64,000 bases of DNA from NCBI GenBank assembly GCA_964626635.1, contig CAZVFY010000002.1, positions 72,415-136,414 on the forward strand, given 5' to 3'. Below are positions 10,876 to 61,924 of this stretch, piece by piece. A program made the position numbers and the translations under genes. Every line of letters begins with the position of its first letter. Within the stretch, counting starts at the first letter, position 1. The stretch is from an uncultured Candidatus Saccharibacteria bacterium. GTDB lineage: Bacteria > Patescibacteriota > Minisyncoccia > Phycocordibacterales > UBA918. The notes beneath the pieces are model-generated. The model saw nothing but the letters and a program-made list of their open reading frames with translations. It had not been told where the DNA came from and did no database searches.

Positions 10876-12246
10876 ATGTTAAGTGTTTGTCCCTATTTTC
10901 ATGTCCATCAGCCATTTCGAGTAAAGCCGTACCGCGTGTTCGCAGTCGGTGAAGACCCGTATTATTTTAATGACGAATCAGGCCGCGACACTGACAATCG
11001 ATTTATTGTTGAGAAAGTGGCTGAGAAGTCCTACCGCCCGACCAACGCCATCCTGCAGGAGTTACTCGATCGTCATCCGCAATTTCGGTTTACTTTATCA
11101 TTCTCCGGGACCGTCCTCGAACAATTCGAAACCTACGCCCCAGACGTGCTCGAATCATTCCAGCGACTGATCGCTACCGGCCGGGTCGACGTGGTAGCAG
11201 ACACGTACCACCACTCGTTGGCGTTCTTTTATTCAGTACCCGAATTTGAGCGCCAAGTGTTGCAACACGAGCGCATTATCAAGCGTCTGTTCGGCGTCCG
11301 ACCACGCGTATTTCGTAACACTGAACTATCGTATCGCAACGACCTGGCCAAGTGGTGTGAGAATCGTGGTTATTTGGGCATCATGGCCGAGGGTTGGGAT
11401 CCGTACCTCGCCGGACGCAGTCCTAACTTTGTCTATCGGCCGGCTGGCTGTAACCGTATTAAAGTCCTCCTTAAAAATTACAAGTTATCTGACGACGTGG
11501 CCTTTCGGTTTGGGAACCAAGATTGGGAAGGTTGGCCGCTGTCGGCAGACACGTACGCCAGCTGGATCAACTCGACGCACGGTGACGGTCAGACAGTTAA
11601 CTTGTTCATGGATTACGAGAGTTTTGGTGAGCACCAGTGGGCTGATACGGGGATCTTTGATTTCTTGCGCAATTTGCCGACAGAATTATTGCGCCACCCG
11701 AACACCACGTTCCGGACCGCGACCGAAACTGTCCAGGCGCTCAGTGCGATAGGGGACTACGACGTACCAGACATTCTGACCTGGGCCGACACTGACCGCG
11801 ATCTCACTGCCTGGGTTGGCAATGATATCCAACGGGACGCGATCGCCGCGACCTTCCGGATGGAGGAGGATGTGTTGGCGACTGACAACCTTGAACTAAT
11901 TGAAACGTGGCGCAAATTGACCACCAGTGATCACTTTTATTTCATGTGCACCAAATGGTCTGAGGATGGTGATGTGCACGCGTATTTCTCGCCCTACGAA
12001 TCGCCCTATGAGGCCTATATCAATTTTATGAACGCCCTGACAGACCTGCGCCATCGCGTTGACGCGGCCAAGGCTGAAGCGCAAGCGGCGCGCGCCCGCG
12101 TCGAGGCATTTGCACCACAACCCAAGGGACGCGCGGCGACTAGTGCGCGCCGTAGGCGGGTGTCGCCAGGGCGTCAGGCCGACGCGTCAGTACCGAGCCC
12201 GCTTTCATTTTGGGCTAAATTACGCGACCGGTTGTTCCCACGATAG
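10876..12246 (+). CDS. Glycoside hydrolase family 57 (alpha-amylase/branching-enzyme-like)
   Basis: N-terminal CPYFHVHQP (the HQP motif of GH57). Length 456 aa. Confidence 0.7.
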   Translation: MLSVCPYFHVHQPFRVKPYRVFAVGEDPYYFNDESGRDTDNRFIVEKVAEKSYRPTNAILQELLDRHPQFRFTLSFSGTVLEQFETYAPDVLESFQRLIATGRVDVVADTYHHSLAFFYSVPEFERQVLQHERIIKRLFGVRPRVFRNTELSYRNDLAKWCENRGYLGIMAEGWDPYLAGRSPNFVYRPAGCNRIKVLLKNYKLSDDVAFRFGNQDWEGWPLSADTYASWINSTHGDGQTVNLFMDYESFGEHQWADTGIFDFLRNLPTELLRHPNTTFRTATETVQALSAIGDYDVPDILTWADTDRDLTAWVGNDIQRDAIAATFRMEEDVLATDNLELIETWRKLTTSDHFYFMCTKWSEDGDVHAYFSPYESPYEAYINFMNALTDLRHRVDAAKAEAQAARARVEAFAPQPKGRAATSARRRRVSPGRQADASVPSPLSFWAKLRDRLFPR

Positions 12247-12252
12247 TGTGTC

Positions 12253-14280
12253 GTGTCGACTGCGCTGCGTGGTATAATGTGTGCAAATGATCTTTGTATG
12301 GCGCGCAGTGTAACAGTCGGCAATGGGCAGATGTTGGTCGGACTTGATGGTCGTGGTCAGGTGCGTGATTTGTATTATCCGTACGTAGGCGAGAGTAACC
12401 ACGTGTCTGGCGCCAGTGGATCACACGTGCACCGCATCGGTGTGCAAGTAACTAGAGACAATAAATCTGAATTTAGTTGGCTCGACGATGCTGGTTGGAG
12501 CATCAGTGTCGGTGGAGACGAACACACGTGTGTCGGGTCGTTGTTTGCCGAGCACGACCGACTCGGGGTCACGATCGCTACGCGCGATACAGTACACAAC
12601 GAACACAATGTTTTCTTGCGTGAGTTTACTCTCACCAATACCGGCAGCACCGATGCGTCAATCAAATTATTCGTGGCGCAGCAATTTCGCATCCAGGAGT
12701 CGCGGCGCGGTGACACGGGGTACTTTGACCCCCGGGTCAATGCCATTGTGCACTACAAAGGGTCAGTGACATTACTGGTCAATGCGTTTTTGGACGGAGC
12801 GCAATTTAGTGAATACAATATCGGTATTTTTGGCATTGAAGGCAAAGAAGGTACTTGGCGTGACGCCGAAGACGGCCGGCTCGAAGGTAATCCGATCGAG
12901 CACGGCTCGGTTGACTCGGTGATCGCGGTCGAGTCCTCGCTCGAGGCCGGTGTGAGTACGACGGGGTATTACTGGATTATCGCCGCCGACAATATCCCCG
13001 CCGCACACGTGCTGGATGAGCTGGTACTACAAGAAACGCCAGCTGCGCTCATTCGCTCGACCGATGCCTACTGGTCCGCCTGGCTCGAAAAGCATGGTCG
13101 CGATCTGACCAGCCTACCGGCCACTTTGCAGACACTCTACCGCCGCTCGTTGATGATCATGCGGGTACATACAGATAACAACGGTGGGATTATTGCCTCG
13201 AGCGACACCGAGATGTTGCATCACGGCCGTGATTGTTATTCGTATGTGTGGCCGCGTGATGGGGCGCTGATCGCGCACGCCTTTGATCAGACCGGGTACC
13301 GTGATGTGGCGCGACAGTTTTTCTTATTTATGCGAGAGTGCCAAGAGCCGGCCGGGTACCTGATGCACAAATACCGCACCGACGGAGCGCTCGGTAGTTC
13401 GTGGCATCCATGGATCATTGACGGTCAGGCCAGACTACCAATCCAAGAGGATGAGACAGCGAGCATTCTGTTCGTACTCTGGAAACATTTCCAGCGTTAC
13501 AAAGACGTCGAGTTTGTCGAGTCAATGTATAACTCGTTCATTGAACCAGCCGCCAATTTTATGGTGGACTATATCGAGCCGACCACTGGTCTTCCCTCGG
13601 CGTCATTTGATTTGTGGGAGGAAAAGTACGGTACTAGCACATACACGGCAGCCAGTGTCTACGCCGGGTTAGCGGCCGCCAGTAAGTTTGCGCAACTCCT
13701 TGGCAAAGCCGAGCCAGCACGTACGTATGGGGCAGTAGCGTCCAGGCTCAAGCGTGCGATCGATGAGCATCTGTGGGATGAAGCACGCGGTGCGTACATC
13801 AAACACGTCTACCACACCGAAGACGGATTACAGTATGATCGGACCATTGATACTAGTAGTTTATACGGTATGTTGTTTTTCGAGGTAGCCTCACACACTG
13901 ACGAACGACTGGCGCGGATGCTACAAACTGTCGAACAAACACTCGCGGTGCGCGGCAACGCAGAGGGCTACATGCGCTACGAAGGCGACAATTACTACAA
14001 ACAAAATGACGCTGACACACCAAACCCGTGGGTTATCTGTACGTTGTGGGTGGCGCAGTTTTATATTGCCGTCGCGACCGACAAACAGGGACTACAAAAG
14101 GCTCTCGAGCTGCTCGAATGGACAGCCTCGCATGCGACCAGTAGCGGCGTTCTGGCTGAACAAATGCACCCGGATACGCGCGCGCAGTTATCGACCGCGC
14201 CCCTCACTTGGAGCCACGCGGAATTTGTGATGGCGTGTGAGGCGTACATGAAAAAGTGGCACGCGCTACAACAAAATTAA
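12253..14280 (+). CDS. Glycoside hydrolase family 15 (glucoamylase/glucodextranase-like)
   Basis: GH15 N-terminal domain (VGNGQMLVGLDGRGQVRDLYYP) plus an (alpha/alpha)6 catalytic region with DLWEEKYG. The start may be a later Met (12277 or 12298). Confidence 0.75.
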   Translation: MSTALRGIMCANDLCMARSVTVGNGQMLVGLDGRGQVRDLYYPYVGESNHVSGASGSHVHRIGVQVTRDNKSEFSWLDDAGWSISVGGDEHTCVGSLFAEHDRLGVTIATRDTVHNEHNVFLREFTLTNTGSTDASIKLFVAQQFRIQESRRGDTGYFDPRVNAIVHYKGSVTLLVNAFLDGAQFSEYNIGIFGIEGKEGTWRDAEDGRLEGNPIEHGSVDSVIAVESSLEAGVSTTGYYWIIAADNIPAAHVLDELVLQETPAALIRSTDAYWSAWLEKHGRDLTSLPATLQTLYRRSLMIMRVHTDNNGGIIASSDTEMLHHGRDCYSYVWPRDGALIAHAFDQTGYRDVARQFFLFMRECQEPAGYLMHKYRTDGALGSSWHPWIIDGQARLPIQEDETASILFVLWKHFQRYKDVEFVESMYNSFIEPAANFMVDYIEPTTGLPSASFDLWEEKYGTSTYTAASVYAGLAAASKFAQLLGKAEPARTYGAVASRLKRAIDEHLWDEARGAYIKHVYHTEDGLQYDRTIDTSSLYGMLFFEVASHTDERLARMLQTVEQTLAVRGNAEGYMRYEGDNYYKQNDADTPNPWVICTLWVAQFYIAVATDKQGLQKALELLEWTASHATSSGVLAEQMHPDTRAQLSTAPLTWSHAEFVMACEAYMKKWHALQQN

Positions 14281-14288
14281 TGTGGTTC

Positions 14289-15278
14289 TTAGATGGGTTC
14301 TTTAGACCAGCGCTGAGTCGCGGTATCAAACGTACCAATCTTTACCCGATGAATGCGCCACGCGAGGCCAACTGTGCTCAGTTGCATCGCGATTACACAG
14401 GCGAGTGTGCGCATGTACGTACCTGAACTGCAGCTGCAACGAAAGTGTAGAATAGAGTAGGTTGCTGGCAATAGTGTGTCAGACCATGTATCGTCTCGCA
14501 CTTGCTCCCAATCTGTTCGTACATCCGTGCGGCGGAAGTCAGCACCCAGGACTTTGCGATCATCAGTCACTGGCGGCATGGTGTTGATGTTTGCAAGTGC
14601 GGTTTCGGCAATCGTGGCGCGGTCGAGCTTGTCACTGCCTACATATTCTAATGAGTAAATGGTTGATTGTCGCTCTGGGATCGTTATCTCGTGCAAGCGA
14701 TTTTCTAGCGCCCACTGAAACAAAGGTTTTCCATTAACCGTTTTGCTCGAGTACGCCGGATAGGGAAGAGAGATCTGCCCAGTGAGTTTTGCACATATTG
14801 GTCTTATTTCATTCTCAAGAATCGAAGGCGATAAAAATGCGCGCTGCGCGCTAAGAGTAGGGGAAGGCATTTTTATCGCTTTCGATTCTTTCTCTGCTGG
14901 CGAACTGGTCAGACCGGTATCACCAAGCCTTCCCCCAGTCTTAGGCCGAAGGCCGCTTGGTGATACCGGCATGGCCGGGTGAGTCTCATTTGTATCCGTG
15001 TACAGCCGCCCCAACACATCATGCGTGTCCGATCCGATGCCCAGCAACACCGAAAATTCGTATGCTTTGTCTAGTCCCAAATACAACTCTTTTCTCTTGC
15101 ATTCCTCGCCAACCAGCACCAGTAATTGCCCAGTAGCCATCGGATCCAGTCGGCCGGCGTACGTTAGGGGAATGTCAGCGGGAATACCGGCTGTATCCCG
15201 CCACGCTTCGAGGCAGGCGAGCGGCGTTTGCCCCAATTGCTTATCAAGTACGACTCGAGACGGGTACGGTGATGACAT
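14289..15278 (-). CDS. truB: tRNA pseudouridine synthase (TruB family)
   Basis: VVLDKQLGQT, YAGRLDPMATGQL (catalytic Asp) and DKAYEF..LGIGSDTHDVLG motifs. A Ser/Pro/Ala-rich insertion sits mid-protein. Confidence 0.7.
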   Translation of the reverse strand: MSSPYPSRVVLDKQLGQTPLACLEAWRDTAGIPADIPLTYAGRLDPMATGQLLVLVGEECKRKELYLGLDKAYEFSVLLGIGSDTHDVLGRLYTDTNETHPAMPVSPSGLRPKTGGRLGDTGLTSSPAEKESKAIKMPSPTLSAQRAFLSPSILENEIRPICAKLTGQISLPYPAYSSKTVNGKPLFQWALENRLHEITIPERQSTIYSLEYVGSDKLDRATIAETALANINTMPPVTDDRKVLGADFRRTDVRTDWEQVRDDTWSDTLLPATYSILHFRCSCSSGTYMRTLACVIAMQLSTVGLAWRIHRVKIGTFDTATQRWSKEPI

Positions 15279-32465: not shown

Positions 32466-32704
32466 GCTGTACACGTTTCAGTTGGGCGGTAATGGAGGGA
32501 GTTGCGGTAGTAGTTTTAATATCTTGCTTCAATGCTTCTTAACCAAAGTAGATGAGTGTAGGCAATACAGCATCACTTTGTCAGTTTACAATAACATAAT
32601 TTGGGGAGGATATGTAAAGAAAGCTCATGTGGATAAGAGTTATAGGTTTAAATAACTTTATTTTGACAAAAAGAAATATCTCATAGACATAGTATAATAG
32701 ACCG

Positions 32705-55199: not shown

Positions 55200-56666
55200 A
55201 TGTCTGACGACCAGTCACAACCAGAATCTAGCGACGTCCACGCGGAGCGTACGCGTATCCTTGCTCAAGCAGTCGCAGCTGGACATGATCCGTACCCAGC
55301 TAGTACCGACCAAACGCACACCATCGCAGCATTTCTCGAACAGTTCGAGTCGCTCGGTGAATCGATTAGTGTAACCTTGGTCGGACGGGTAATGGCAACG
55401 CGCGAGCATGGCGCGATCGCCTTCTTTGACATATTTGATGGCACGGGTCGCACCCAGGCATTCCTCAGTGTTGAGGCGATGGGACAAGAAGCGTTTGACG
55501 CCTGCCTGTCGTACGTCAGTACAGCCGACTTTATCCAAGTTACTGGCACGCCGTTTTTGAACAAGCGTGGTAAACAAGTCGTACTTGTGACTGACTGGCG
55601 TCTCTTGACCAAAGCGACTGCCAATATGCCAACCGAACATTTCGGTATTAAAGACGAGGACGAACGATTGCGTAAGCGCTACCTAGATCTGCTCCTAAGT
55701 GATGAGCAGCGCGAGCTGTTCGTTCAGAAAGCCAAGTTCTGGGACGTCACGAGGACCTTTATGAAAGAACGTGGCTTCCTAGAGGTCGAGACGCCATATT
55801 TTGAAACCACTACCGGTGGGGCAGAGGCCAGGCCATTTATTACGCACCACAATGATTTTGGCATTGATGGGTACTTGCGGATCTCGGTCGGTGAGCTGTG
55901 GCAAAAACGCCTCATGGCCGCTGGGTTCCCCAAAACATTCGAGATCGGCAAAGTGTTCCGCAACGAAGGCACTAGTTCCGAACACCTCCAAGAGTTCACC
56001 AACATGGAATTTTACTGGGCGTACGCAGACTACCGTGATGGCATGACGCTGACACGCGATTTGTACATCACGATTGCTCAGGAAGTGTTCGGCACGACCC
56101 AGTTCGAAGTGCGTGGACACTCGTTTGATTTGGCGGATGAGTGGCGCGAGATTCACTATGTCAGCGAGGTGCTTGCGCAAACTGGTATTGATGTCACCAG
56201 CGCCAGCGAGGATGAGATGAAAACAAAATTGAACGAGCTCGGTGTGCAGTACGACGGTGATAATCGCGAGCGTTTGACGGACACACTGTGGAAATACTGC
56301 CGCAAGCATATTGCGGGGCCGGCGTTCCTCGTCAATCACCCGCTACTGGTCGCGCCACTCGCCAAAGCCAATGCTGATGGCCTGACCGCACAAATGTTTC
56401 AGCCGATCATCGCTGGTAGCGAAGTCGGTCGTGGCTACAGCGAGCTGAACGACCCTGATGAGCAACGGCGACGGTTTGAAGTGCAGCAACAGCTACTCGA
56501 TGCGGGGGACGACGAAGCGATGATGCCGGACTGGGAGTTCGTCGAGATGCTCGAACACGGCATGCCACCCACGTGCGGGTTTGGATTTGGCGAGCGATTG
56601 TTTGCATTTTTAGCAGGGAAGTCACTGCGCGAGACGCAGCTGTTTCCACTGGTGAAGCCAAAGTAG
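55200..56666 (+). CDS. lysS: Lysine--tRNA ligase (class II)
   Basis: OB-fold N-terminal domain. Class II motifs FEIGKVFRNEG and GFGFGERL. Confidence 0.9.
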   Translation: MSDDQSQPESSDVHAERTRILAQAVAAGHDPYPASTDQTHTIAAFLEQFESLGESISVTLVGRVMATREHGAIAFFDIFDGTGRTQAFLSVEAMGQEAFDACLSYVSTADFIQVTGTPFLNKRGKQVVLVTDWRLLTKATANMPTEHFGIKDEDERLRKRYLDLLLSDEQRELFVQKAKFWDVTRTFMKERGFLEVETPYFETTTGGAEARPFITHHNDFGIDGYLRISVGELWQKRLMAAGFPKTFEIGKVFRNEGTSSEHLQEFTNMEFYWAYADYRDGMTLTRDLYITIAQEVFGTTQFEVRGHSFDLADEWREIHYVSEVLAQTGIDVTSASEDEMKTKLNELGVQYDGDNRERLTDTLWKYCRKHIAGPAFLVNHPLLVAPLAKANADGLTAQMFQPIIAGSEVGRGYSELNDPDEQRRRFEVQQQLLDAGDDEAMMPDWEFVEMLEHGMPPTCGFGFGERLFAFLAGKSLRETQLFPLVKPK

Positions 56667-56694
56667 TTGACAAACAATTTAATTCGTGTATAGT
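56667..56694 (+). promoter_or_regulatory. Strong sigma70-like promoter TTGACA-16-TATAGT
   Basis: Perfect -35 TTGACA at 56667-56672 and TATAGT at 56689-56694 with a TG immediately 5'. Starts 1 nt after the lysS stop. Confidence 0.6.
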
Positions 56695-56732
56695 ATAGAC
56701 ATAAGTTCCTCTAGCGCCATAAGGAGATAACC

Positions 56733-56897
56733 ATGGCCAAGCTCCACAAGACCCCGCCGTCCAGCAACAACCGCGCGGCGCGCAAGCGTCGCGAGCGCGA
56801 GGTCAACGCCCGCCGCTACGGCTGCGACATCGACATCCGTCGCGGCGCCCCCGTCGCCGGAACCAGCATCAAGAACTCCAAGGCTCGCGATGGCTAA
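56733..56897 (+). CDS. Mini-gene encoding a 54-aa basic protein, hypothetical; codon usage foreign to this window
   Basis: RBS AAGGAG 6 nt from the ATG. MAKLHKTPPSSNNRAARKRREREVNARRYGCDIDIRRGAPVAGTSIKNSKARDG. Third-codon positions are about 90% G/C. Own promoter and terminator. The 154-aa ORF on the opposite strand looks spurious. Confidence 0.4.
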   Translation: MAKLHKTPPSSNNRAARKRREREVNARRYGCDIDIRRGAPVAGTSIKNSKARDG

Positions 56898-56915
56898 GTC
56901 CTTAAGTTCATCCAC

Positions 56916-56946
56916 CCGCCCCACATCCGACGATGGGGCGGTTTTT
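56916..56946 (+). terminator. Rho-independent terminator
   Basis: CCGCCCCA-catccgacga-TGGGGCGG followed by TTTTT. Confidence 0.65.
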
Positions 56947-56971
56947 CGTTTGTCCCCACACAAATGCAGCA

Positions 56972-57019
56972 AAGTGGGGCAAAGTGGTATATAGTGTAAA
57001 AGTGGTGGGAGATAGTGGT
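56972..57019 (+). promoter_or_regulatory. Array of five direct AAAGTGG-type repeats phased at 10-11 bp (MraZ-box-like operator)
   Basis: AAAGTGG (56971), AAAGTGG (56981), ATAGTGT (56991), AAAGTGG/TGGG (57000-57009) and ATAGTGG (57012-57018), read directly. They sit about 190 nt upstream of mraZ. Confidence 0.55.
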
Positions 57020-57130
57020 ATAGATTCTGGTGTTTGTGTCTAGAATCTATATTGAAATCTCGCACGGATGGATTCTGGTAGCCTCGGCTACACAGGCTGT
57101 CTTGCGATATTTCGGGACGATCAGAGGGGT

Positions 57131-57182
57131 CTTCCGGCGACAATGCAAACCAATCTCCACGAATTGTATTGTCGGCGGAAGG
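57131..57182 (+). other. Long imperfect hairpin in the mraZ 5' leader
   Basis: CTTCCGGCGACAAT ... ATTGTCGGCGGAAGG: 14/15 complementary with one G-G mismatch and a 23-nt loop. Confidence 0.4.
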
Positions 57183-57208
57183 CCGCTTGATCCACCAGTT
57201 TAGTTATT

Positions 57209-57643
57209 ATGTTGATCGGCGAGCACAAGCATACGTTGGATCCCAAGAAACGGCTGTCTTTGCCCAGCAAATGGCGCAAAGAACTTGGGAAAACGCTCGT
57301 CGTGACACGAGGGCTAGACAACTGTCTCTTTGTGTACACGCTACCCGAATGGCAAAAGATCACCGACAAGGTATCTGAACTGCCGCTTGGGTCAGCGGAT
57401 ACACGAAGTTTCAATCGCTTCTTTTTATCAGGCGCGGTTGAAGTTGAAGTCGATAGTGCCGGACGCATTCTCGTACCAGATTTCCTGAAGCAATTTGCAC
57501 AGCTCGATACCAAAGTTGTATTGGCGGGCGTGCATTCTCGCATCGAAATTTGGGACGAGGAAAAGTGGGAAGCCTACACTGCCAGCATGGAACGCGATGC
57601 GGATACGCTCGCCGAAAAGCTCAGTGAGATTGGCGTCTTATAA
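57209..57643 (+). CDS. mraZ: Transcriptional regulator MraZ
   Basis: MLIGEHKHTLDPKKRLSLPSKWRKELGKTLVVTRGLDNCLFVYTLPEW. Tandem MraZ/SpoVT-AbrB-type halves. Confidence 0.85.
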   Translation: MLIGEHKHTLDPKKRLSLPSKWRKELGKTLVVTRGLDNCLFVYTLPEWQKITDKVSELPLGSADTRSFNRFFLSGAVEVEVDSAGRILVPDFLKQFAQLDTKVVLAGVHSRIEIWDEEKWEAYTASMERDADTLAEKLSEIGVL

Positions 57644-60634: not shown

Positions 60635-61924
60635 ATGAAAAATCTTTTTAAACAGCTGGTAATTACAGTATTGCAATGGGAGGCCCGGCTGGTGCTGCGC
60701 CGCCACCGGCCGACCGTCGTCTGTATCACCGGTAGTGTCGGCAAAACCACCACCAAAGACGCCATCTACGCCGCTGTCAGTGACTCCGTACCGGCTCGCA
60801 AAAGCGAAAAAAGCTACAACTCTGAATTTGGGGTGCCGCTCACCGTATTGGGGCTGCGCAACGGCTGGAATAATCCTTTCTTGTGGGTATTGATTCTGAT
60901 TGAGGGGGCTGTGGTGGCGCTATTTTCTAGGCGGTATCCAGCCGTACTGATATTAGAAACTGGCGTTGATCACCCCGGTGATATGCAGCGCCTCACCAGC
61001 TGGCTGACACCGGACGTGGTCGTGCTGACCAGGTTCCCGACGGTGCCTGTCCACGTCGAGCAGTTCGACGGCCCAGAATACGTGATCGAGGAGAAAATGG
61101 ATTTGCCTCGTGCCTTGCGCCAGAATGGTGTGCTCATTATTAACGCCGATGATGATCTGGTGATGAACGCAGCCAAAGAAATACGTCAGACGCACATCAC
61201 GTACGGACGCTATCGCGAGGCGGCAGTCCGCACCACTGACGTCAGTCTGACCTACGTCGACAATCGCCCGGCCGGCACCAAATTTACCATCACCAGTCCG
61301 TCTGGCGCAGCGGACGTAGTCATCAATGGTGTGCTCGGGGAGCAGCAAGCATACGCCGCAGCGGCAGCCGCTGCAGTCGCTGGTCATCTAGGAGTGACAA
61401 TGCCGGACGCTGCCGCCGGACTGGGGACGCTCGTGCCTCCCCGTGGCCGTATGCGAGTCTTACCTGGATTGAAGGGTACCACCCTGATTGATGATACCTA
61501 CAACTCTTCACCTGCGGCTGCTGTCCACGCTCTTGAGACCTTGGCCAAGATCAAACACGCCAAACGACGCATCGTCGTGATGGGAGACATGCTGGAACTT
61601 GGACGTTTCTCCAAAGAAGAGCACCTAGCGATCGGCAAGACGGTCGCCACTGTCGGCGACGTGCTGCTGACGGTCGGGGTACGGGCCCGCGGCGTGGCGC
61701 GCGGCGCGCTCAATCACGGTATGGACGAAGCCAATATATTGCAATACGAAAAGACTGACCGCGCTGGCCGCGAGCTGCAAACTCTGTTGCAGCCGGGCGA
61801 TGTGGTGTTGGTGAAAGGTTCGCAAGGTATACGAATGGAACGGATCGTCAAAGAAGTCATGAACGAACCAGACCGCGCCAGCGAATTGCTAGTACGCCAA
61901 GAATCCGTGTGGGATAAGCGGTAG
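60635..61924 (+). CDS. murF: UDP-MurNAc-tripeptide--D-Ala-D-Ala ligase (MurF), lacking the N-terminal domain
   Basis: VVCITGSVGKTTTKD, NSEFGVPLTVLGL, IDDTYNSSP, VVMGDMLELG and VLVKGSQGIRMERIV match MurF rather than MurE. 429 aa. Confidence 0.8.
   Translation: MKNLFKQLVITVLQWEARLVLRRHRPTVVCITGSVGKTTTKDAIYAAVSDSVPARKSEKSYNSEFGVPLTVLGLRNGWNNPFLWVLILIEGAVVALFSRRYPAVLILETGVDHPGDMQRLTSWLTPDVVVLTRFPTVPVHVEQFDGPEYVIEEKMDLPRALRQNGVLIINADDDLVMNAAKEIRQTHITYGRYREAAVRTTDVSLTYVDNRPAGTKFTITSPSGAADVVINGVLGEQQAYAAAAAAAVAGHLGVTMPDAAAGLGTLVPPRGRMRVLPGLKGTTLIDDTYNSSPAAAVHALETLAKIKHAKRRIVVMGDMLELGRFSKEEHLAIGKTVATVGDVLLTVGVRARGVARGALNHGMDEANILQYEKTDRAGRELQTLLQPGDVVLVKGSQGIRMERIVKEVMNEPDRASELLVRQESVWDKR

Follow-up and report, generated by a model that had tools for sequence, protein, structure and literature searches.

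Phased repeats upstream of mraZ

The stretch of contig CAZVFY010000002.1 analysed here (64,000 nucleotides; "the window", to which all positions refer) contains a cluster of genes for division and the cell wall (dcw) headed by mraZ, which encodes the transcription factor MraZ. Upstream of this gene lies an array of five short direct repeats that is probably the operator of MraZ itself, interleaved with the mraZ promoter. A pattern search of the window for A[AT]AGTG[GT] found the five repeats on the + strand with starts at 56971, 56981, 56991, 56999, and 57012; the remaining 26 matches are dispersed over both strands. The stretch from 56970 to 57019 reads cAAAGTGGggcAAAGTGGtatATAGTGTaAAAGTGGTGGGagATAGTGGt. 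The features of the promoter region are as follows.

56971-57018, + strand: box array, caAAGTGGggcAAAGTGGtatATAGTGTaAAAGTGGTGGGagATAGTGGt, five A[AT]AGTG[GT] boxes in 48 bp
56971-56977, + strand: putative MraZ box 1, AAAGTGG; core GTGG at 56974-77; slot -28 from the predicted transcription start
56981-56987, + strand: putative MraZ box 2, AAAGTGG; core at 56984-87; slot -18; abuts the -10 element
56990-56995, + strand: predicted -10 hexamer TATAGT of the mraZ/dcw promoter, placed by conservation in 84 relatives
56991-56997, + strand: putative MraZ box 3, ATAGTGT; core GTGT at 56994-97; slot -8; overlaps the 3' end of the -10 hexamer
56999-57009, + strand: putative MraZ box 4, AAAGTGGTGGG; in-phase core GTGG(G) at 57005; slot +3
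57012-57018, + strand: putative MraZ box 5, ATAGTGG; core at 57015-18; slot +13
57209-57643, + strand: mraZ, first gene of the dcw cluster; Pfam MraZ, E = 7.6e-37

The GTG[GT] cores begin at 56974, 56984, 56994 (GTGT), 57005, and 57015, at intervals of 10, 10, 11, and 10 bp, while the start-to-start distances of the 7-mers are 10, 10, 8, and 13 bp. The regular phasing requires that box 4 be read in the GTGG(G) register at 57005; a second GTGG at 57002 overlaps this box and is out of phase. An earlier note on this DNA had described five direct repeats at 10-11-bp spacing, about 190 nt upstream of mraZ and right after the terminator of a mini-gene. This description holds in each respect, with the spacing being that of the cores: the repeats start between 56971 and 57012, the mraZ ATG (57209) comes 190 nt after the end of the array, and the array begins 24 nt past the T-run of the upstream hairpin.

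From the background rate of matches, ~9e-8 clusters of at least five boxes per 48 bp are expected by chance in the whole window, and the biggest cluster in 60 windows simulated with a first-order Markov model contained two boxes. No further AAAGTGG array was found in the 64 kb, in which this one is the sole chain of at least three AGTG[GT] cores with 10-11-bp spacing. Tandem Repeats Finder reported the first 1.9 copies only, which is uninformative because the boxes have a short core in common and not a whole repeat unit.

At the junction of two open reading frames (ORFs) elsewhere in the window (12240-12285), a promoter-like GTGG-TATAAT-GTGT has an ATAGTGT 23 nt upstream and is probably a chance match. 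The possible second site at 12269 within this stretch (GTGGTATAATGT) was dismissed, its register being unlike that of the mraZ promoter and no phased array being present. Formation of a G-quadruplex from the G-runs was dropped on reasoning alone, as relatives keep the GTGG phasing and not the length of the G-runs, and the loops would be long.

Conservation of the array

The 17-mer GTGGTGGGAGATAGTGG (57002-57018) is identical in the related loci L001-L012, which were selected by MraZ protein similarity only and whose flanks have diverged; L013 and L014 each have one spacer substitution in it. A metagenome scan with the 17-mer returned 120 stretches; pooling these with the loci selected by protein similarity yielded 84 non-redundant mraZ promoters. 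These were combined into an ungapped profile with position 0 at window 57002. Invariant in all 84 clade promoters are GTGGG at -28 to -24, GTG[GT] at -18 to -15, and the bases T-14, T-12, A-11, and T-7; A-9 is kept in 96% and A-8 in 76%. The conserved element at -12 to -7 is, as judged from its sequence, the sigma-70 -10 hexamer (TAnAAT). TTG is present at -34 to -32 in 65-87% of the clade promoters, and the -35 TTGAC of relatives lies 16-17 bp from the -10. Occupancy of the phased slots in the clade promoters is as follows.

Slot -49: 69%
Slot -38: 81%
Slot -28: 100%
Slot -18: 100%
Slot -8: 15% as strict GTG[GT], 82% as nTG[GT]
Slot +3: 100% (part of the 17-mer search pattern)
Slot +13: 100% (part of the 17-mer search pattern)

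A control register five bases out of phase is occupied in at most 11%. The earlier note had set the five boxes against the three of Escherichia coli; the count stands, but it represents no expansion for this lineage, given that six phased slots are usual in the clade and seven are the maximum. Compared with the clade, the window lacks the -49 and -38 boxes as well as the -35 TTG, and has a full GTGT in slot -8.

In about 30% of the metagenome stretches with the 17-mer, no mraZ start can be recognised downstream (L092-L097, L105, L108, L126, L158, L162, and others), and these were left out of all counts. Some are truncated mraZ promoters. Many others have the common context ...cttgagGTGGTGGGAGATAGTGGgctg..., which resembles the antisense of a conserved coding motif in high-GC bacteria.

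Across the phylum, we compared 80 Patescibacteria loci picked by MraZ protein similarity alone (81 sequences including the window). GTGG-N6/7-GTGG has 104 matches in the 31.7 kb upstream of mraZ, distributed over 72 of the 81 loci, versus 14 matches in 767 kb elsewhere in the loci (both strands), a ~180-fold enrichment upstream of mraZ. Strict GTGG triples occur 75 times in 2.5 Mb; in 68 cases a recognised mraZ start follows within 450 nt, and six of the other seven are the same promoter in truncated loci. The combination GTG[GT]-NN-TAnnnT is present upstream of mraZ in 71 of the 81 loci. Distant Patescibacteria classes have a common layout, GTGT-TGAC (-35), GTGG-NN-TAnAAT (-10), 8-9 nt, GTGG-N6-GTGG, in which GTGT is fused to the TTGAC of the -35. 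We considered and rejected GTGG beside a -10 as a general promoter feature: the window has 9 matches versus 6 expected, and in the loci the combination is found nearly only at mraZ. In the literature, we found no description of an MraZ operator in Patescibacteria.

MraZ protein and the promoter within the array

MraZ of the window aligns without gaps to the MraZ proteins of Mycoplasma pneumoniae (1n0e) and M. genitalium (9qlr and related entries). Residues T9, D11, K13, R15, S17, D82, S83, and R86 are kept, and alignment to 9qlr and 1n0e shows that both DXXXR motifs are present (D11-P-K13-K-R15 and D82-S-A-G-R86). In the cryo-electron microscopy complex of M. genitalium (2026), K13, R15, and R86 read the TG(T/G) of every GTG(G/T) box, with 6-nt spacers between the GTG(G/T) cores; the defined site is AAAGTGT-N3-AAAGTGT-N3-AAAGTGT-N3-AAAGTGG (PMC12957436). 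The mapped transcription start in that species is a G within an MraZ box, and stepwise mutation of the boxes relieves repression (PMC12957436). Three boxes are found in most bacteria, four in some Mycoplasma (PMC12957436).

The predicted -10 of the window has box 2 on its 5' side and box 3, with which it overlaps, on its 3' side; boxes 4 and 5 together span about +1 to +17. Transcription is predicted to start at about G57002, inside box 4 and 7 nt after the -10. A consensus promoter scan requiring at least 4/6 in the -35 detected no promoter at the array, nor the candidate of the earlier note (TTCTGG-17-TATATT, 57025-57053). The one promoter it found (56667-56694, TTGACA-16-TATAGT, 11/12) is that of an upstream 54-codon ORF. 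Because the -35 at the array falls short of the scan threshold, the promoter was assigned by conservation. The candidate at 57025-57053 gains no support from the comparison either, as it lies inside leader hairpin 1 (57018-57052) and the conserved -10 lies in the array. Since the equivalent hairpin arms covary in relatives, the stretch 57025-57053 is most likely transcribed, and the position of covarying hairpins directly after box 5 suggests that the start is most likely within or upstream of the array, and not at ~57060.

The array as a putative MraZ operator

We propose, with a probability of roughly 80%, that the array serves the mraZ/dcw promoter as its MraZ operator, that it is interleaved with the core promoter, and that it is autorepressing. 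It is situated upstream of a dcw-heading mraZ and contains at least three direct GTG(G/T) repeats spaced by one helical turn, and the protein encoded downstream keeps both DXXXR motifs together with K13, R15, and R86. The boxes are conserved in, and specific to, orthologous promoters. The suggestion of the earlier note that the array is a MraZ-box-like operator is therefore well supported at the level of sequence, by the match to the M. genitalium boxes and spacing, by the kept reading residues, and by phased boxes that are conserved and mraZ-specific.

From these comparisons we infer MraZ binding, the start position, and the repressive direction. The five boxes would lie on one face of the DNA, one helical turn apart, at about -28, -18, -8, +3, and +13, and an open-ring MraZ oligomer would present one AbrB-like cradle (K13, R15, R86) to each successive major groove. 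Bound in this way, MraZ would sit over the spacer, -10, and start site and keep RNA polymerase out, and this promoter occlusion would lead to autorepression of mraZ-rsmH-ftsL-ftsI and the genes that follow. The transcript would start with boxes 4 and 5 and continue into a structured leader, ~207 nt in all up to the mraZ ATG.

Several points weigh against this proposal. The invariance of slots +3 and +13 is by construction in the metagenome set, the 17-mer having been the search pattern, and is independent in L001-L014 only. The window has no recognisable -35, since 56967-72 and the neighbouring registers match 2/6, unlike in most relatives; the promoter may be weak or activator-dependent, or mraZ may be transcribed by read-through from the 56667-56694 promoter. 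Boxes 4 and 5 would also form the 5' end of the RNA, where they are pairable with downstream CCAC segments, and their conservation could be partly at the RNA level. Finally, there is a report of MraZ acting as an activator, which is taken up below.

An unlikely alternative is that MraZ binds the boxes as an activator and, in a promoter without a -35, recruits RNA polymerase from -28 and -18. The -35 match of 2/6 in every register, where relatives have TTG or TTGAC, is consistent with such a role. However, relatives with a good -35 have the same boxes, and boxes at -8, +3, and +13, over the -10 and the start, are in classic repressor positions. Repression by MraZ in E. coli, reportedly observed by Eraso and co-workers, also counts against an activator. 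The activation seen on overexpression of MraZ in M. gallisepticum, a result known here through its citation in PMC12957436, favours it, but repression through such repeats has been described in both Bacillus subtilis (10.1101/2022.02.09.479790) and M. genitalium (PMC12957436).

A structured 5' leader

The sequence between the array and mraZ appears to encode a structured RNA. Compared with shuffled sequences, the segment 57002-57220 has a fold z-score of -6.5 and forms three hairpins, which are listed here with a fourth element before the start codon.

57018-57052, + strand: leader hairpin 1, 13-bp stem, from the fold; holds the inverted repeat and most of the promoter proposed in the earlier note
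57054-57113, + strand: middle leader hairpin, window-specific, from the window fold alone; 86-nt insertion relative to the family model
57119-57192, + strand: leader hairpin 2, long stem, from inverted repeat and fold; conserved loop CUCCAC at 57155-57160
57192-57201, + strand: CCACCAGTTT before the start codon; inverted repeat with box 4 (56999-57008), 90% over 10 nt; paired in the minimum free energy fold

The 8-bp inverted repeat that had been noticed at 57021-28/57042-49 is real and forms part of the longer 13-bp stem of hairpin 1. In an alignment of the leader from 46 relatives, compensatory changes are present in 28 of 30 consensus pairs. Hairpin 2 accounts for most of these (24/26 pairs with compensatory changes, 94% of cells paired), and in the equivalent of hairpin 1 all 4 scored pairs have changed on both sides (91% paired). 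Over the whole leader, 93.8% of cells are paired versus 30-43% when the partners are slid by 1-3 columns, and the covariation score is 0.73 versus 0.09-0.14 in these controls. G-U pairs are frequent and place the structure on the sense strand. A covariance model from which the window was left out matches 57002-57211 at full length with E = 5.5e-8, a value that is partly due to the common 17-mer. The full leader family is confined to the closest subgroup (L001-L006); the structured leader was also noted in about 45 metagenome loci. Rfam scans of 56600-57300 and of the loci of five relatives matched no family and gave only sub-threshold generic hairpins; the mraW RNA motif (RF01746) had no match at E <= 10 in 56600-57300 and none at E <= 0.1 in the five loci. 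The leader is absent from Rfam, and the strong covariation argues that it is a structured RNA.

In the modelled fold, pairing of CCACCAGTTT with box 4 could bring the two ends of the leader together. Relatives have CTATCAAG 5-12 nt before the ATG, and GAUAGU of the invariant 5' 17-mer is a possible pairing partner for the conserved ACUAUC before their AUG. The window differs from them in its pre-AUG sequence, CCACCA, which pairs with UGGUGG in that 17-mer. Closure of the leader ends could be a conserved trait of the window and its relatives.

A 12-nt direct repeat, ATAGATTCTGGT / ATGGATTCTGGT (57020-57031 and 57068-57079), links hairpin 1 to the middle hairpin, which may have been derived from a partial duplication. 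An alternative pairing of the 3' arm of hairpin 1 (57042-50) with 57068-76 is possible. A leader peptide after the Shine-Dalgarno-like GGGAGA at +5 was rejected by eye, as the GUG 3 nt later opens the frame GUG GUA UAG. In another Patescibacteria clade (L015, L016, L018, L022-L024, and L026), a long hairpin ~150-270 nt upstream of mraZ has the last box, GAAGTGGTA..., at its base, paired with a downstream CCACTTC; the arms of this hairpin covary, for example GGTAAATAAC/GTTATTTACC versus GGTAGATAAC/GTTATCTACC.

It is very unlikely that the repeats act mainly in the transcript, with read-through from the 56667 promoter, pairing of GUGG with CCAC, and merely incidental boxes in the DNA. A strong promoter (11/12) does lie 300 nt upstream, CCACCAGTTT complements box 4, and the CUCCAC loop of hairpin 2 is complementary to GUGG(G)AG; the last box of the other clade, at the base of its covarying hairpin, also fits such a role. 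However, a terminator-like hairpin lies between the two units, and the 54-codon gene is absent from 200 related loci in which the boxes are still conserved. Among the boxes is the invariant TAnAAT with a -35 at 16-17 bp, and the boxes at -28 and -18 are without a pairing partner. Strict 10-bp phasing of direct repeats is, moreover, a property of a DNA face and not of RNA, and a role in RNA only is unlikely. The pairings listed above may, however, add an RNA layer to that of the DNA.

DnaA boxes at mraZ promoters

Among the Patescibacteria loci, the exact DnaA 9-mer TTATCCACA/TGTGGATAA is ~110-fold overrepresented within 300 nt upstream of mraZ, with 47 occurrences in 23.6 kb (40 of 80 loci) versus 7 in 388 kb elsewhere. 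These 9-mers are in both orientations and occur in L015-L080. Within the closest clade, DnaA-like sites are found at about -49 and -62, and in 60 of 85 promoters slot -49 reads TGTG[GT]A[TC]AA, which matches the DnaA box at 8-9/9. This distribution of sequence motifs suggests a DnaA input at the dcw promoter in Patescibacteria. In the window itself, neither the exact TTATCCACA nor the relaxed TTWTNCACA is present in the array or its flanks in either orientation; matches, exact or relaxed, are at 14787, 32628, and 41899, of which that at 32628 is exact. The best DnaA-like element near the array is TTGTCCCCA at -52, a remnant that matches 7/9. One feature belongs here.

56950-56960, + strand: TTGTCCCCACA, degenerate DnaA-box-like, 7/9 to TTATCCACA; some relatives have TTATCCAC[CA] there

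A DnaA role of 56950-56960 in the window is doubtful.

Binding of the five boxes themselves by a different protein is highly improbable; one candidate would be DnaA, as GTGG is also part of its consensus TGTGGATAA. The enrichment of the exact 9-mer and the resemblance of slot -49 to a DnaA box would be in keeping with this, but none of the five resembles a complete DnaA box: the window box AGTGGTATA (56983-91), aligned by eye, matches 5/9 and the best nearby element 7/9. DnaA boxes occur in both orientations, whereas those of the window are strictly direct at 10 bp, as MraZ requires, and a DnaA identity of the boxes was rejected. The remaining alternative, a short repeat without function made by chance or slippage, can point to the frequency of short G/T-rich motifs and the mere 1.9 copies found by Tandem Repeats Finder, but a chance origin is contradicted and, on sequence comparison, excluded, with ~1e-7 such clusters expected and the boxes kept position by position in 84 diverged promoters without conservation of the flanks.

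Returning to the MraZ operator, a possible though doubtful extension of this reading is control of the dcw operon of this clade at two coupled levels, in which an unusually long operator over the entire core promoter (5-7 boxes, often with a perfect DnaA box) is combined with pairing of a so far undescribed leader RNA with the transcribed GUGG boxes. If this were the case, one short motif would have two roles, as the DNA site of a protein and as a sequence for RNA pairing, and leader pairing (through CUCCAC and, in the window, the pre-AUG CCACCA) would possibly gate mraZ translation or mRNA stability.

Comparison with known mraZ promoters

In E. coli, MraZ is said to bind three TGGGN repeats with 5-nt spacers at Pmra, resulting in autorepression. 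The window resembles Pmra in having phased direct repeats with a TGG(G) core at a dcw promoter, and TGGG itself is present in box 4 (GTGGTGGG) and box 1 (GTGGGG). Unlike the three E. coli repeats, which are downstream of the promoter, the five of the window are interleaved with it, and their conserved core, GTG[GT], has A-rich sequence on its 5' side.

The 7-mer of the window is the same as that of the Mollicutes operator, described as (AAAGTG[T/G]N3)k in M. gallisepticum (Fisunov et al. 2016) and as four boxes in M. genitalium (PMC12957436), with AAAGTG[GT] in three of the window boxes and ATAGTG[GT] in two. The two also agree in having a 10-bp period and direct orientation, in being placed at the mraZ promoter, in residues K13, R15, and R86, and in a start at a G inside a box, which in the window is predicted. 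In contrast to the 3-4 boxes of Mollicutes, the window has five and its clade relatives 6-7 slots, and one spacing is 11 bp. Further differences are that the window boxes flank and overlap the -10, that the dcw cluster, in a Patescibacteria host, is a full peptidoglycan one, and that there is a structured leader of ~200 nt.

B. subtilis has three GTGG[A/T]G repeats with 4-nt spacers, a triple found only at Pmra and needed for repression, which depends on both DXXXR motifs (10.1101/2022.02.09.479790). The GTGG core and the 10-bp period are the same in the window, and just as the triple is unique in that genome, the phased chain is unique in the window. The two differ in box number and in box positions relative to the -10 and +1, and the 3' flank [A/T]G is not conserved in the window.

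The mraW RNA motif (RF01746), a structured 5' leader of the mraZ/mraW operon in Actinomycetales (Weinberg et al. 2010, PMC2864571), is, like the leader described here, a conserved structured RNA in a dcw leader and thus a precedent for RNA-level dcw control. It differs from the window leader in both sequence and structure, without a match in either, and comes from another phylum; the window has a long hairpin with a CUCCAC loop.

The array appears to be the expected kind of element, an MraZ operator, in a variant with 5-7 boxes interleaved with the promoter and with a clade-specific structured leader. The tiny genomes of Patescibacteria have kept few transcription factors, MraZ among them, and the protein is ~80% identical across a large clade. 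That the Mycoplasma box code and spacing, known there from structure, recur unchanged in a very distant, uncultivated lineage supports the generality of the mechanism. The predicted -10, +1, and five boxes yield a testable promoter and operator map for division control in organisms not yet grown alone. The leader RNA absent from Rfam and the abundance of perfect DnaA boxes near mraZ both hint that the control of replication and that of division are linked, and these side findings are of greater interest than the operator itself.

Gene neighbourhood and the upstream ORF

Homologues of MraZ at ~80% identity are very numerous, and the named ones belong to Kaiserbacteria, Pacebacteria, and other Patescibacteria; an identical protein is present on JGI metagenome contigs of one population. 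The host lineage is Patescibacteria, Paceibacteria/Kaiserbacteria-like. No Shine-Dalgarno sequence precedes mraZ. The genes following it are, in order, rsmH, an ftsL-sized ORF, ftsI, and a large ORF (60635-61924), which position alone suggests to be murF-like. Upstream of mraZ are lysS (55200-56666), the 54-codon ORF, and then the terminator-like hairpin.

56916-56947, + strand: terminator-like hairpin (CCGCCCCA/TGGGGCGG) with T-run, an inverted repeat; closes the 54-codon ORF

The hairpin proper (56916-56941) has a predicted folding energy of -16.2 kcal/mol and is followed by TTTTT. A terminator-like hairpin is found directly upstream of the array in relatives too, and that of the window separates the 54-codon unit from the mraZ promoter. 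The 54-codon ORF (56733-56897) has a near-consensus promoter, a strong Shine-Dalgarno sequence, and a terminator, and its GC content is 0.75; at third codon positions (GC3) it reaches 0.89, compared with a GC3 of 0.57-0.62 in the neighbouring genes. Pfam gave no match to it, and it is missing from all 200 related loci, many of which have lysS upstream of mraZ. Because of this absence, it looks like a recent foreign insertion. Its presence coincides with the loss of the -35 and of two upstream operator slots, and the insertion may have removed the upstream part of an ancestral operator.

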